Source of the DNA: a virus
Taxonomy: Duplodnaviria; Heunggongvirae; Uroviricota; Caudoviricetes
Virus record (IMG/VR): IMGVR_UViG_2681813274_000011
Strand: one strand, 5' to 3'
DNA length: 4,909 nt
Shown one piece after another: positions 1 to 4,909 of this stretch (its first letter is position 1; each line of letters opens with the position of its first letter). The notes below the pieces were generated by a model. The model saw only the letters and a list, made by a program, of their open reading frames with translations. It searched no databases and was not told the DNA's origin. The position numbers and the translations under genes were made by a program.

Positions 1-494
1 ATTAGAACCTGTATTTTTTGCAACTGTTTCAGATATTTCAGCCAACTGCCATCAACACGTCCCTGAGCCAACTGTTCCAGTAATCGCCCGGTTCTACAGT
101 ACCGGACGCTGTATTTCTGTCGACATGCCTGTTCGCCCAGCGCATTGGCTATCCAGCTCTTACCGCATCCTGTCGGACCGGTTATCAGTAGGTTTTTCCT
201 GTGGATTATGTAGTGGCCGTTCAGCAGTTCCCTCATCTGTTCAGCCCGCAGACCTCTTGAGGCCGGATAACGCAGCCCTTCCGGTGTTGCCTGATATTTC
301 AGGCAGGCATTTTTTCTCAACCGTGCCACACGACTGTTTTCTCTGCTCAGAAGCTCGTCATCAACCAGCAGTGTCAGCCTTTCCTCGAACGACAGTTCGT
401 CGTAAGTCTGAGGCGTTTCCCGTTGCCGTATCAGGCTCCCGGCCATCGCCGGGAGTTTCAGTTGGGTCAGTTTGTTTAACAGATTATCACTCAT
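1..494 (-). CDS. istB: IS21-family IstB-like ATP-binding transposition helper, 5' part only (about 164 N-terminal codons; C-terminus lies beyond window position 1)
   Basis: Minus-strand frame open from ATG at 494..492 to the window edge with no stop (absent from the ORF track because it is open-ended). Translation begins MSDNLLNKLTQLKLPAMAGSLIRQRE and contains a Walker A P-loop LLITGPTGCGKSW. GAAGGA Shine-Dalgarno-like sequence a few nt upstream. Starts 16 nt after the istA stop, the canonical IS21 istA-istB arrangement. Confidence 0.8.
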   Translation of the reverse strand, partial: MSDNLLNKLTQLKLPAMAGSLIRQRETPQTYDELSFEERLTLLVDDELLSRENSRVARLRKNACLKYQATPEGLRYPASRGLRAEQMRELLNGHYIIHRKNLLITGPTGCGKSWIANALGEQACRQKYSVRYCRTGRLLEQLAQGRVDGSWLKYLKQLQKIQVL

Positions 495-510
495 ACGGTT
501 GTTCCTTCTG

Positions 511-2046
511 TCAGTGATAGTAGCCAGGACCACGCAGGTTTTCATGCTCTGAAGCATATGCCGGATGTTGTTCGCCCTGGCGGGATAACGGAAGCTCAAC
601 GTTATCCCGATGATGACGCAGCAGATTGTCGATAAAGCGTCTGTCCGGGGCGTTATAGTGCAGGGCAACGTAACAGGCCTTTTCCAGCCGTTCCGGGCCG
701 TATTTTTTCTGAAGTGCCAGCAGACCCAGGACTGCACGGTAAGCCAGCTCCGGATGGGGTTTGGCTTTCAGCATGGATTCAACCACCCGGCCTGTGGACG
801 GACCTGTACGGTTTCCCTGCTCGATAAGGCGTTCCGGTGTCCATGTCCCATGCCGCCGGTGGCGTTCTGGCATGTGAAGCGGATTGGTTGTGTGTTTATA
901 TTCATGTGTGCTGCGCGGATGTTGCGCCACACACTGCCCCTTGTGCCAGAGCTGTACCACCGACTGCCCCACCTTCAGTGACAGACGCTGACCGACCAGT
1001 TCGTGTGGAACGGAGTACCAGTGACGGGCATATTCAACGTGGTAGTCAGGGCCAACCTTCACGGCTTTGTATTCCGTGTATTCATAAGGCTCCAGAGGCA
1101 GCGGAGAGAGTGCTGGTGCATCCAGCATGCGGAAGCGTTCTGCGCGGGTTTGATTACCGTATCCCTTCATTGGTCGGTTATTCATGTCCGTCAGCAACTC
1201 CCGAAGGCGTGCATTCAGCGCCCTGAGCGTGTGGAAGGTTTCATTACGGATGCGGGCAAGAAGCCATCGCTCGACGATGAGGACGCCGTTTTCTGCTTTT
1301 GGTTTATCTTTAGGTTTGCGCGGGCGGGCCGGGATAATAACCGTGCCATAGTGCTCAGCCAGCGCCTGATAACTGTCGTTGATGACAGGCTCATAGCGAT
1401 CGGCTTTTTTCACTGCGCTTCTGAGGTTATCGGGGATGAGCAGCTTCGGTACGCCGCCCAGGAAGGTCAGGCAACGGCTGTGGGCATTTAACCATGACAT
1501 CATGTCCTGACCTTCGCACGCTTCAACATAGGTATAGTTGGACGCCCCCATTACAGCCACGAAGATTGCCACGCGGCGTATCTCTCCGGTGTCCGGATTA
1601 ATAACAGGGACCGTAGGACCACAGAAGTCGATAAAGAGCTTTTCGCCAGCACGATGCTCCTGTCGCATGGAGAGGCGTCGCGTTTTTTTCCACTTCCGGT
1701 AGCAACGGCAGAAGTGTGAGTATCCCATCGCTTTGTCACCCGCCTGTGCCTTGTATTCCATCCACAACAGTTGGCGCGTCACGCCAGGTTTTCTCATTTC
1801 CGTATCGAAGTACAGCATGTCAGGCATAACAAGCTCTGACGCAGAGGTGTCTTTGGGCGGGAAAATGAGTTTCTCCAGCGTGTCATGGGATATATCCGCA
1901 GGTAATGGCCATGACAGAGAAGAGGCTTTGAAGCGGGCAAGAACCTCAAAAACGGTTGAGGCGCTGATGTGTAACGTCAGTCCGATACAACGGTTAGTCA
2001 GCTTCTTATCGAACTTGAGCTGAAGGATCTTAAAACAAGTTTCCAT
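511..2046 (-). CDS. istA: IS21-family IstA transposase (HTH + DDE/rve catalytic domain), 511 aa from the preferred start
   Basis: The ORF track gives 511..2100 (529 aa). I prefer the in-frame ATG at 2046..2044 (METCFKILQLKF...) because it is preceded by AGGAG with a 4-nt spacer; the ATGs at 2100 and 2076 lack an obvious SD. DDE-type motifs read from the translation: FIDFCG, LLIPDN, and KPKDKPKAENG (K-x-K-x-E pattern typical of IS21 IstA). TGA stop at 513..511. Confidence 0.85.
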   Translation of the reverse strand: METCFKILQLKFDKKLTNRCIGLTLHISASTVFEVLARFKASSLSWPLPADISHDTLEKLIFPPKDTSASELVMPDMLYFDTEMRKPGVTRQLLWMEYKAQAGDKAMGYSHFCRCYRKWKKTRRLSMRQEHRAGEKLFIDFCGPTVPVINPDTGEIRRVAIFVAVMGASNYTYVEACEGQDMMSWLNAHSRCLTFLGGVPKLLIPDNLRSAVKKADRYEPVINDSYQALAEHYGTVIIPARPRKPKDKPKAENGVLIVERWLLARIRNETFHTLRALNARLRELLTDMNNRPMKGYGNQTRAERFRMLDAPALSPLPLEPYEYTEYKAVKVGPDYHVEYARHWYSVPHELVGQRLSLKVGQSVVQLWHKGQCVAQHPRSTHEYKHTTNPLHMPERHRRHGTWTPERLIEQGNRTGPSTGRVVESMLKAKPHPELAYRAVLGLLALQKKYGPERLEKACYVALHYNAPDRRFIDNLLRHHRDNVELPLSRQGEQHPAYASEHENLRGPGYYH

Positions 2047-2155
2047 AGTGCTCCTGGATTTTCTCTTTTTGGACATTGACGTCTCCACTGGTTTAAACAC
2101 GGCAATGGAGACTGTGGTGAAAAGAGTTAATTCCCGGAGTGACTGGCGAATTCCA

Positions 2156-2292
2156 NNNNNNNNNNNNNNNNNNNNNNNNNNNNNNNNNNNNNNNNNNNNN
2201 NNNNNNNNNNNNNNNNNNNNNNNNNNNNNNNNNNNNNNNNNNNNNNNNNNNNNNNNNNNNNNNNNNNNNNNNNNNNNNNNNNNNNNNNNNNN
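2156..2292. other. Run of 137 undetermined bases (N): assembly gap or masked sequence
   Basis: Directly visible in the sequence. The three track ORFs containing X residues (2048..2305 +, 2093..2329 -, 2139..2393 +) are artefacts of translating across it. Confidence 0.95.
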
Positions 2293-2333
2293 ATGCTACC
2301 AATGAAAGATACTGGAAAGCCAACTGCAAAAAG

Positions 2334-2648
2334 CTAACAACCCGTAATCGAGTTATCAGAACTGTTAATTTTTATGGTATACCGCGCCTCTGAACAGGGG
2401 CGCGTTTCTGGCAACAGCTCGTCCCCTTCACATAACCCGGCAGCAACATCCAGGAAGACCTGTCTGATGCTCCTTCTGGCTGCTGCCTCATAAAACTCCA
2501 GCGCGGCACCTTCAACACGGTCCAGCGAGATGTCCAGGTCAAAAATTTCACCGTCAAAGCGTTTTTTGTCCCGTAACGCTAAAGTTACCGTAACTTTATT
2601 CTCAAAATTGCGGATCCCTTTCACAATCAGTTCATAGTTTTGAGTCAT
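2334..2648 (-). CDS. Small acidic cytoplasmic protein of unknown function, 104 aa; YdfR-like (DUF1327-type) by position and size, not verified by sequence
   Basis: ATG at 2648..2646 lies 4 nt after the holin stop (2655..2653), with GGGGAG upstream, suggesting translational coupling. No hydrophobic segment and many D/E residues. In E. coli K-12 cryptic prophage Qin, a ~103-aa gene (ydfR) sits between holin essQ and endolysin rrrQ (recalled synteny); this gene has the same position and size. TAG stop at 2336..2334. Confidence 0.6.
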   Translation of the reverse strand: MTQNYELIVKGIRNFENKVTVTLALRDKKRFDGEIFDLDISLDRVEGAALEFYEAAARRSIRQVFLDVAAGLCEGDELLPETRPCSEARYTIKINSSDNSITGC

Positions 2649-2652
2649 TGAA

Positions 2653-2868
2653 TTACTCTCCCCGTGCAGCCTTACGACGGTCCTCTCTGATTTTGAAATA
2701 CAGGTTAGTCAGATATGTCAGCAGCCCAAACAGCAGACTCCCCAGCACGCCTATTGCCGCCCACTGAGACGGGGAAACCCTGTCCAGCAACTGCAGGAAC
2801 CAGTAGCCCGTTCCCACCGCTGACGTGGTGTATGACACACCTGTTGTGATTTTTTCCATCTGGTACAT
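2653..2868 (-). CDS. S: Phage class II holin of the S21 pinholin type, 71 aa, with a second in-frame start giving 68 aa
   Basis: The track ORF (97 aa, 2653..2946) is over-extended. The start at ATG 2868..2866 (MYQMEK...) is preceded by GGGAGA, and a second in-frame Met at codon 4 (2859..2857) gives 71/68-aa products, the lengths of the phage 21 antiholin/holin pair. Two transmembrane segments: a weakly hydrophobic Gly/Ser/Thr-rich TMD1 ([24 protein letters not shown]-like) and TMD2 ([23 protein letters not shown]). Highly charged C-terminal tail [13 protein letters not shown]. Confidence 0.8.
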
Positions 2869-2903
2869 ACCCCGTCTCCCGTTATCCGGAAGCTGACAAC
2901 AAT

Positions 2904-2933
2904 AAAAAAAGCCACCAGTTAAGTACTGATGGC
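2904..2933 (-). terminator. Rho-independent (intrinsic) terminator between the esterase gene and the holin gene
   Basis: On the minus strand: 8-bp stem (gccaucag / cugguggc, one G-U wobble; plus 2926..2933 and 2911..2918), 7-nt loop, then a run of 7 U (plus-strand A-run 2904..2910). Lies 86 nt downstream of the esterase stop and 35 nt upstream of the holin start. Confidence 0.75.
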
Positions 2934-3018
2934 TCTGATAACTCATGCAGGCATCTCAGACGACCCACTGACACTACCGGTGAGTTTAACGATACCTTCC
3001 ATTTGGCTGGCTCACTTT

Positions 3019-4872
3019 TTATGATGATGCCGGTGCATTTATCTCCAGCACCAGACTTTCTATCTCAACGCCATACGCTGCATTTTTGGTAATATCCGTC
3101 AGCGTCAGCGCATTCAGCCCCAGTGTCAGACTGTCTTTTATGACCTGGAATGCCGGGCCAGCCACTCCATTCAGTTTCGGAGTAACCGTGGCACTGCCGG
3201 CGGTGAACACCAGCTCCAGCGTCAGCCAGTCGTTACTGTAATTCCCGAACTCGCCCAACTTTGTGTTTCCTGCTTTCTTGTGATGCATCAGATTCAGTTT
3301 GCCGTCTGTGGTCTGGGTGAAGAACGACATCAGGAACGGGTTACCAGTCCCGGTCATCGCCACGACGTCAGGTAACGCTACATCGGTATACAGATAAATT
3401 CCCAGACCGAACTGGTTGTTGGTCAGTGCGCCTGACAGTCGAAACTTACAGCTCAGTCTGCCACCCCGTGTCAGCAGGGAGACTGCGTCATCCACCGGGC
3501 GCGTCAGGGACCAGGCTTTATTGCTCTGCTTGGTGATCTTAAATACACCATCTGACAACTGAACTCCGCCATTCTTAATGCTCCAGCCCTGCGCAGCAGC
3601 GTCTCCGGCTGTCGGCAACAGGGAGATTGTGCGTATGGATGCATCTTCAGACGGCCCCGATGGCGTGTCGCCGCCGGGCGAGGGTTTGATTTCCGGTGCC
3701 TTACCACTAATGAAGGCTAAGGTGCGACCGGCTACGTTCAGAATAGCAGTTGCCATACGATCGGGAATAATGCCACGACGCGCCCATGAGCTGAAATGCG
3801 TCGGGCGATTTGATGATACCCAGTTTTTGTTCGTTCGGGATGCCGAACCGTAATAACCAGACCCGGCAATATCAGGATCTTCTGACGGGTTGTTTGTCGG
3901 TGTATTAACTCCGCTACCATCGGTCATAAAGGGAACAAAATAAATCTGCTGGGATTCTTTACCTTTATATGCACCATATACCACTTCATATTGCGTACCG
4001 TGTTCTTGTTTCCACGCGTATGTCGTGTCGCCACAAATCCAGGGGACTGATGCCGGACTTCCACCGTGACACTGCGCCGCCAGCCCGGCAAGGTCAGCAC
4101 GGAACTGCTGTACCATTGCAAGAAATGCTGCTGGCTGCTGGGCGTAACTGGCATTCGTCATATCGAATTCCCCCTGCATCCAGCATATCGCCAGCAAAAC
4201 GTTTTTCGGGTTTTTCTGCAATGCTGCCTTCGTGCGGAAAAGCAGATCCTGATATAACGGCTTACCCACTCCCCAGCGAGCCGAATCCTGACTGGCCCCC
4301 GTGGACTCGCTGAATGTCCCCTCCGTGCCCTGGGTGAATGCCGAACCACCACGACAGCATGGTACCAGCAGGATCCCCGCATTATTAGGGATATACGGAA
4401 GCAGTTTTTTGGCAATATGTAAGCCCTGTCCGACACAGCCGTACTGCCCTTTGCTCAGGTCAGCCCGGGGATGGTTAATCGTACTCATATCCTGAACATC
4501 ATGCAGACAATGGTCAGCAGGAATGATGTCGTTAAATACGCATACTTCACCACCGGGAGTCACTGTGTTACGACGGGCCAGTTGCTTAATGCGCGGATGG
4601 GGCGCATCGTATGAATCCGGAAGCGGAAGACCTTCACCGTAAGCCATGGCATTGGATTGCCCGGCCAGTACGATGACGTAGTACCACTCCGGCTCAGTTG
4701 CACCACTGACGACCACATCACCTTCTGCTGCAATCGCCTGCATCAGGGTATAAGGGGTTATGGCCACCGGACTACCAAACGGCTGCCAGCCCTCCTTCAG
4801 TTTTTGTGTCAGTCGTTTCGCAAGGTCTGACGGCGATGCCGCCCTGACCACGTCATAGTGTTTAAATGCCAT
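3019..4872 (-). CDS. nanS-p: Prophage-encoded sialate O-acetylesterase (NanS-p-like): N-terminal DUF1737-like region, SASA/DUF303 SGNH-type esterase domain, and a ~205-aa C-terminal domain of unknown function
   Basis: 617-aa ORF with ATG at 4872..4870 preceded by GGGAGG (4-nt spacer). SGNH/SASA motifs in the translation: GQSNA (aa 71-75, nucleophile Ser block), WMQGEFD (aa 231-237), THF (aa 358-360, candidate catalytic His). Pro/Ser/Gly-rich linker KPSPGGDTPSGPSEDAS (aa 396-412). Size and position immediately upstream of the holin match the nanS-p genes of lambdoid/Stx-type prophages of E. coli (recalled). Confidence 0.7.
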   Translation of the reverse strand: MAFKHYDVVRAASPSDLAKRLTQKLKEGWQPFGSPVAITPYTLMQAIAAEGDVVVSGATEPEWYYVIVLAGQSNAMAYGEGLPLPDSYDAPHPRIKQLARRNTVTPGGEVCVFNDIIPADHCLHDVQDMSTINHPRADLSKGQYGCVGQGLHIAKKLLPYIPNNAGILLVPCCRGGSAFTQGTEGTFSESTGASQDSARWGVGKPLYQDLLFRTKAALQKNPKNVLLAICWMQGEFDMTNASYAQQPAAFLAMVQQFRADLAGLAAQCHGGSPASVPWICGDTTYAWKQEHGTQYEVVYGAYKGKESQQIYFVPFMTDGSGVNTPTNNPSEDPDIAGSGYYGSASRTNKNWVSSNRPTHFSSWARRGIIPDRMATAILNVAGRTLAFISGKAPEIKPSPGGDTPSGPSEDASIRTISLLPTAGDAAAQGWSIKNGGVQLSDGVFKITKQSNKAWSLTRPVDDAVSLLTRGGRLSCKFRLSGALTNNQFGLGIYLYTDVALPDVVAMTGTGNPFLMSFFTQTTDGKLNLMHHKKAGNTKLGEFGNYSNDWLTLELVFTAGSATVTPKLNGVAGPAFQVIKDSLTLGLNALTLTDITKNAAYGVEIESLVLEINAPASS

Positions 4873-4909
4873 GAATCCTCCCGGCCGGGATAATATTGTG
4901 AGTAAAATA

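Follow-up and report, generated by a model that had tools for sequence, protein, structure and literature searches.

A 137-N run between an ISSso4 interior and a lambdoid prophage lysis cassette as a probable assembly gap over the insertion junction

The stretch of DNA analysed here (4,909 nt; hereafter the window) contains a single run of exactly 137 N and is free of N elsewhere (Table 1). The left flank, up to position 2155, is identified by sequence as the interior of ISSso4, an insertion sequence of the IS21 family, and the right flank, from position 2293, is DNA of a lambdoid prophage lysis cassette (YdfR, holin, and a SASA esterase). The istB gene is partial because the window starts inside it, and the istA start codon (position 2046, minus strand) lies 109 nt from the N-run. 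Since one flank is IS interior and the other prophage DNA, the IS/prophage junction must lie under the Ns.

Table 1. Coordinates and supporting evidence for the features of the window.
Feature	Positions	Strand	Evidence or comment
istB (helper ATPase), partial, N-terminal 164 codons	1–494	minus	Pfam IstB_IS21, E = 1.9e-31; annotated istB in identical E. coli copies
istA (DDE transposase, 511 aa), intact	511–2046	minus	Pfam Mu-transpos_C_2 (7e-20) and rve (1e-7); E. coli annotation "IS21-like element ISSso4 family transposase"
Visible non-coding region of the ISSso4 left end	2047–2155	minus	Same in all aligned ISSso4 copies but for one base in L006
N-run	2156–2292		137 N; judging from 13 relatives, stands for 186 nt (122 nt ISSso4 left end + 64 nt prophage)
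Spacer between ydfR and the lysozyme gene	2293–2333	minus	No annotated feature in the uninterrupted prophage of E. coli 55989
ydfR-type gene (DUF1327, 104 aa)	2334–2648	minus	Pfam DUF1327, 5e-39; annotated "YdfR family protein"
Class II holin (P21 S type, 71 aa)	2653–2868	minus	Pfam Phage_holin_2_1 (PF04971), 9e-33; annotated "class II holin family protein"
DUF1737-SASA-DUF6645 carbohydrate esterase, 617 aa	3019–4872	minus	Pfam

ISSso4 takes its name from Shigella sonnei under ISfinder naming. Window positions 1–2155 differ by 0–1 mismatch over 2155 nt from copies annotated as "IS21-like element ISSso4", and they show the gene order of the IS21 family (istA then istB on the same strand), in agreement with the RefSeq annotation of identical copies. 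The exact IstA protein was found in 1832 blocks of the assembly collection. The element is multicopy, as had been proposed from the letters alone: one E. coli genome has it in up to 33 places, and Shigella-type chromosomes carry several full copies (up to three were fetched from one of them, e.g., CP032523.1). The 12 IS listed for S. sonnei 53G also include it (PMC7373316).

Complete ISSso4 copies begin with TGCGTATTCC... and end with ...CCATTTTGCA (TG...CA ends), the terminus of the window's own copy being hidden. One complete copy (L006; 2638 bp, starting TGCG... and ending ...TGCA) has five direct repeats of ~23 nt (ATGCCAA..TGATCG) plus a terminal partial one at its left end, and two to three inverted copies of the same repeat at its right end. 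Repeated motifs inside IS21 ends are the presumed binding sites of IstA. Target duplications of 5–7 bp were found across the other ISSso4 copies examined, and the end anatomy is standard for the IS21 family. In the window, the first of these terminal repeats straddles the edge of the gap, so that it is only partly visible (about 2147–2155). Uninterrupted left ends elsewhere run exactly 122 nt past the position equivalent to 2155, with 0–1 mismatch, and end in ...GATGCCATTTTGCA (...TTTTGCA), after which the host DNA differs from copy to copy; the terminus of the IS must thus lie inside the gap. The preliminary description had placed both the junction and the left terminus under the Ns, and both placements are borne out by these copies. 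It had further put the terminus 100–200 bp upstream of istA, which was right as to the gap and slightly short as to the distance: in complete copies elsewhere, the terminus lies 231 nt upstream of the istA ATG.

Several other features of ISSso4 copies were observed along the way. The istB gene of one copy (L024, L025) has an in-frame deletion of 81 nt, giving 224 aa instead of 251 aa; this version is present in at least two Shigella-type chromosomes, beside full-length copies, with the deletion immediately to the left of window position 1. In unrelated E. coli strains (L002/L003, about 5748; L004, about 5701), an IS4-family element (transposase WP_072301575.1) has entered two different end repeats of ISSso4 right after the ATGCCAA, in opposite orientations, which hints at a target preference of that element for the repeated ATGCCAA motif. 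Nested insertions also occur, with IS110-family and IS3-family transposase genes lying against or inside ISSso4 ends (L022, L023, and L026); the interruption of the left end in L023 falls about 50 nt beyond the equivalent of window position 2155.

On the prophage side, the window has the holin and ydfR genes and lacks Rz and the remainder of the lysozyme gene. The 617-aa esterase is intact, and exactly the same protein is found in 2869 blocks of the assembly collection, mostly on contigs of 2–5 kb, so breaks on both sides of the esterase module are usual in short-read assemblies. In about half of 785 E. coli records, similarity ends within 2 nt of window position 2293, which on these alignments is a frequent mosaic boundary between lysozyme and ydfR. 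The end of the window (4909) was examined in the same respect, and no recognisable repeat or mosaic boundary was found there.

The content of the hidden stretch can be read from relatives that span it. An exact look-up of the 617-aa protein led to ten finished Shigella-type chromosomes (L007–L016), and a pattern scan of viral contigs with a spacer of 171–201 nt added three IMG/VR contigs (L027–L029). In the seven loci compared directly (six of the ten chromosomes and L027), window positions 2293–4909 are 100% identical over 2617 nt; positions 1993–2155 are matched at 100% in the six chromosome loci, L027, and L029, apart from one gap in L013. All 13 spanning loci have 186 nt between the two flank matches, and the sequence of this stretch is the same in 11 of them, with the other two set apart by one substitution or one ambiguous base. 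Its first part is the 122-nt ISSso4 end, and the 64 nt of prophage DNA that follow read ATCAGCGCCAGAACAGCAGCTGACAGGCCGTATTTGATTTTTGCGCTCATGGATATTTATCAGG. Judging from these relatives, the hidden 122 nt would hold four further repeats of ~23 nt and the terminal ...GATGCCATTTTGCA. In the uninterrupted prophage of E. coli 55989, these 64 nt correspond to the first 50 nt of a minus-strand lysozyme gene and a 14-nt spacer on the side of ydfR; thus, in the relatives, ISSso4 interrupts the endolysin gene after codon 16. By comparison with E. coli 55989 and with the 64 nt kept in the relatives, the start of the endolysin gene would also lie under the Ns of the window. The suggestion that the start of the interrupted gene is hidden therefore agrees with the relatives, in which the ATG and first 50 nt of a lysozyme gene of the R/rrrQ type fall within the stretch concerned. 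The lysozyme remainder and Rz are absent from all relatives fetched.

The ORF that spans the junction in these relatives is a 56-aa fusion, which is on record as a hypothetical protein of Shigella sonnei (197 contigs). Well over 100 short "hypothetical proteins" (P0002–P0120), recorded in E. coli, Shigella, Salmonella, and Klebsiella, end in the same ~40 residues as this fusion. They are apparently ORFs that run from diverse host DNA into a left end of the ISSso4 type, and are thus likely to be gene-calling artefacts that mark IS insertion sites.

Searches for the source of the window itself were negative within the collections scanned. Pattern scans for the two flanks 122–152 nt apart gave no match in viral, genome, or metagenome contigs, and a scan for flanks 171–201 nt apart gave none in genome contigs; in a local test, the pattern symbol N matched a literal N in such scans. 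Within these collections, no sequence matched the window identically on both flanks, no complete E. coli genome had both flanks joined, and the distal junction (lysozyme remainder beside the ISSso4 right end) had 0 matches in viral contigs. When the unmasked IS end and the uninterrupted phage spacer were scanned against Rfam, no sign of a structured RNA under the gap emerged; the only match, to snR67, was a sub-threshold chance match (18 bits, with the threshold at 55; E = 0.31).

Our preferred reading, to which we assign a probability of about 0.8, is that the N-run is an assembly or scaffolding gap over the junction between the ISSso4 left end and a cryptic lambdoid prophage in an S. sonnei-type genome, and that the 137 N most likely stand for 186 nt. 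By this account, ISSso4 would have inserted 50 nt into the minus-strand endolysin gene, just downstream of the holin gene and ydfR; the position of the IS inside the endolysin gene means that the lysis cassette of the prophage would be inactivated. Short-read assembly or scaffolding would then have left the N-run, which would reflect neither biology nor a base-for-base mask. The Ns would cover the 122 nt of the IS end, with its repeated ATGCCAA..TGATCG motifs and terminal ...TTTTGCA, and after it the 64 nt of phage DNA with the lysozyme ATG. That the source of the window carries the same insertion as its relatives is probable, being the parsimonious reading of the identical flanks, IS orientation, and prophage.

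Because the 13 spanning loci carry essentially identical stretches of 186 nt, the N count is most likely a scaffolder's estimate, which is 49 nt too short; it would represent an estimate from insert size. The doubt raised in the preliminary description as to whether 137 nt is the true length was therefore probably justified. The 49-nt shortfall was also considered as the k-1 of a de Bruijn assembler, and we make no claim to that effect.

We infer that the Ns are of assembler origin, and several positional coincidences, at positions 1, 2156, and 2292/2293, point to an assembler rather than to a mask. The gap starts at a site that varies between copies on a single chromosome (CP151357.1), being A in L018 and L030 and G in L017. 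In the draft contig L028 (IMG/VR UViG 2690316058_000009), the only ambiguous base, at 4597, corresponds to window position 2156. Window position 1 coincides both with the edge of the 81-nt istB deletion of the other ISSso4 copy and with the end of the L028 contig, and the last N lies within 2 nt of the common lysozyme/ydfR mosaic boundary. The contig runs unbroken across a further difference between copies, at window position 517, so such differences are not by themselves enough to produce a gap; the idea that the left piece is the exact stretch common to all copies is weakened by the same observation.

The adjacency of a full-length ISSso4 to this prophage is a separate matter. In finished chromosomes, ISSso4 at this locus is cut at about window position 1993 by an element annotated as IS600 in E. 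coli; this was the case in 24 of 24 finished chromosomes reached via the junction ORF (24 of the 75 blocks with long contigs were read) and in 10 of 10 reached via the 617-aa protein. What is left of ISSso4 at the locus in finished Shigella-type chromosomes is a terminal remnant of 285 bp (window position 1993 to the IS end), and no further ISSso4 or lysozyme sequence occurs within 6–10 kb beyond the IS600 cut in the finished chromosomes read. The loss of the remaining ISSso4, the distal lysozyme sequence, and Rz looks like an IS600-associated deletion. The IS600 element itself lies at about 12929–14160 in L007–L016 and at about 6330–7570 in L030–L039 (window position about 1993).

A long ISSso4 beside this prophage was seen only in the window and in the draft contig L028. 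Because every finished chromosome read has the IS600-cut form, the full-length IS of the window may be an assembly or collapsed-repeat join: window positions 1–2155 would be a collapsed consensus of all ISSso4 copies, scaffolded to the prophage, and the real genome would have only 285 bp of ISSso4, followed by IS600. This refines the explanation of the N-run as an assembly gap and does not contradict it. We regard it as a serious possibility, at somewhat less than even odds. Beside the uniform state of the 24 and 10 finished chromosomes, it draws on L028, in which the ambiguous base at a copy-variable site suggests that reads of several copies were merged, and which stops at the same point as window position 1. 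However, if the IS branched to IS600 at about 1993, one would expect its contig to end there, and the contig is unbroken. Lineages with an intact copy may also exist among the 75 long-contig blocks, of which 24 were read, and an intact copy is a necessary ancestral state that could persist in some lineage.

The window might instead represent an S. sonnei-type lineage that retains a full-length ISSso4 in the lysozyme gene, that is, the ancestral state before the truncation and deletion associated with IS600, or else a junction that arose independently at the lysozyme start codon and measures exactly 137 nt. Taken together, these two possibilities are rather unlikely; if either held, the locus would have minor use as a phylogenetic marker of prophage decay driven stepwise by IS, and would not be a new kind of element.

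It is improbable that the Ns replace exactly 137 real bases, whether as a mask or as a gap of exact length, in a source whose junction differs from that of all relatives. Such a length could arise if ISSso4 had inserted independently at the first base of the lysozyme start codon, 15 nt from the right flank, for which the arithmetic (122 + 15 = 137) is possible; it would nevertheless be unparsimonious for the same IS to have entered an otherwise identical prophage a second time, 49 nt away and in the same orientation. Alternatively, the common junction could have suffered a 49-nt deletion, but slippage between the end repeats (spacings of 22–24 nt) would delete 45–47 nt; the loss of two repeat units was likewise rejected as the cause of the difference between 186 and 137 nt. 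One of the searched collections is documented to contain deliberately masked stretches, and the negative scans described above, in three collections at 122–152 nt and in genome contigs at 171–201 nt, mean that the source was not found unmasked. Against these points, 186 nt are present in all 13 spanning relatives, including ones that are 100% identical on each flank, and a mask would have no reason to begin at a site that varies between IS copies.

The preliminary description correctly quoted the 45 bases that follow the gap (ATGCTACCAATGAAAGATACTGGAAAGCCAACTGCAAAAAGCTAA, positions 2293–2337), and its proposal that they are the C-terminal tail of a plus-strand gene emerging from the Ns and ending at the TAA of 2335–2337 (residues ...MLPMKDTGKPTAKS) is spurious to all appearances: beyond the 14 open codons visible after the gap nothing speaks for such a gene, whereas the reconstructed sequence (...GRI*FLRSWIFIRMLPMKDTGKPTAKS*) has an in-frame stop 9 codons upstream of ATG CTA and thus only 23 codons from stop to stop, the stretch is a spacer between the minus-strand ydfR and lysozyme genes without plus-strand annotation in the uninterrupted prophage, and L028 has no ORF of at least 50 aa in that frame.

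The junction is an ordinary one, already sequenced in many Shigella sonnei genomes, where it measures 186 nt; it represents the disruption of a prophage endolysin by a known IS in an IS-rich Shigella-type genome, as found in many public genomes. If the N-run is the assembly gap that we favour, its value is one of quality control only, since the Ns would conceal no unknown biology and their content is readable from public S. sonnei genomes. For users of the record, the N count is unfit as a measure of distance, no annotation should be given to the plus-strand ORF beside the gap, and the adjacency of full-length ISSso4 and prophage should be taken as provisional.

Compared with known systems, the IS part of the window has the same istA/istB pair as ISSso4 and shows no difference from it in the visible part, the terminal 122 nt being hidden. 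The prophage part resembles the lambdoid lysis cassette of the Qin/P21 type (holin S, ydfR, lysozyme R/rrrQ, and Rz; E. coli 55989), whose gene order it shares and to which its DNA is 98.3% identical over the visible side; it differs in that the lysozyme gene would be interrupted after 50 nt, and in that its remainder and Rz are missing from the window and from the flanks of the relatives. A further counterpart is the disrupted lysozyme locus of finished S. sonnei chromosomes (e.g., CP151357.1, CP049169.1, and CP104423.1), which match the window at 100% over the 2617 nt of the prophage side and are identical to it over the adjoining 163 nt of ISSso4, with the IS in the same orientation; those chromosomes differ from the window in having ISSso4 cut by IS600 at about 1993 and 186 rather than 137 nt between the flanks, whereas the window has the full istA and part of istB. 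The gap itself is like the scaffold gaps found at IS in short-read assemblies of IS-rich Shigella genomes, in that it involves a multicopy element, has edges on copy-variable sites, and has an N count that differs from finished genomes. Unlike typical gaps of that kind, its start is not at an IS boundary but 122 nt within the IS, and it reaches 64 nt into unique-looking phage DNA.
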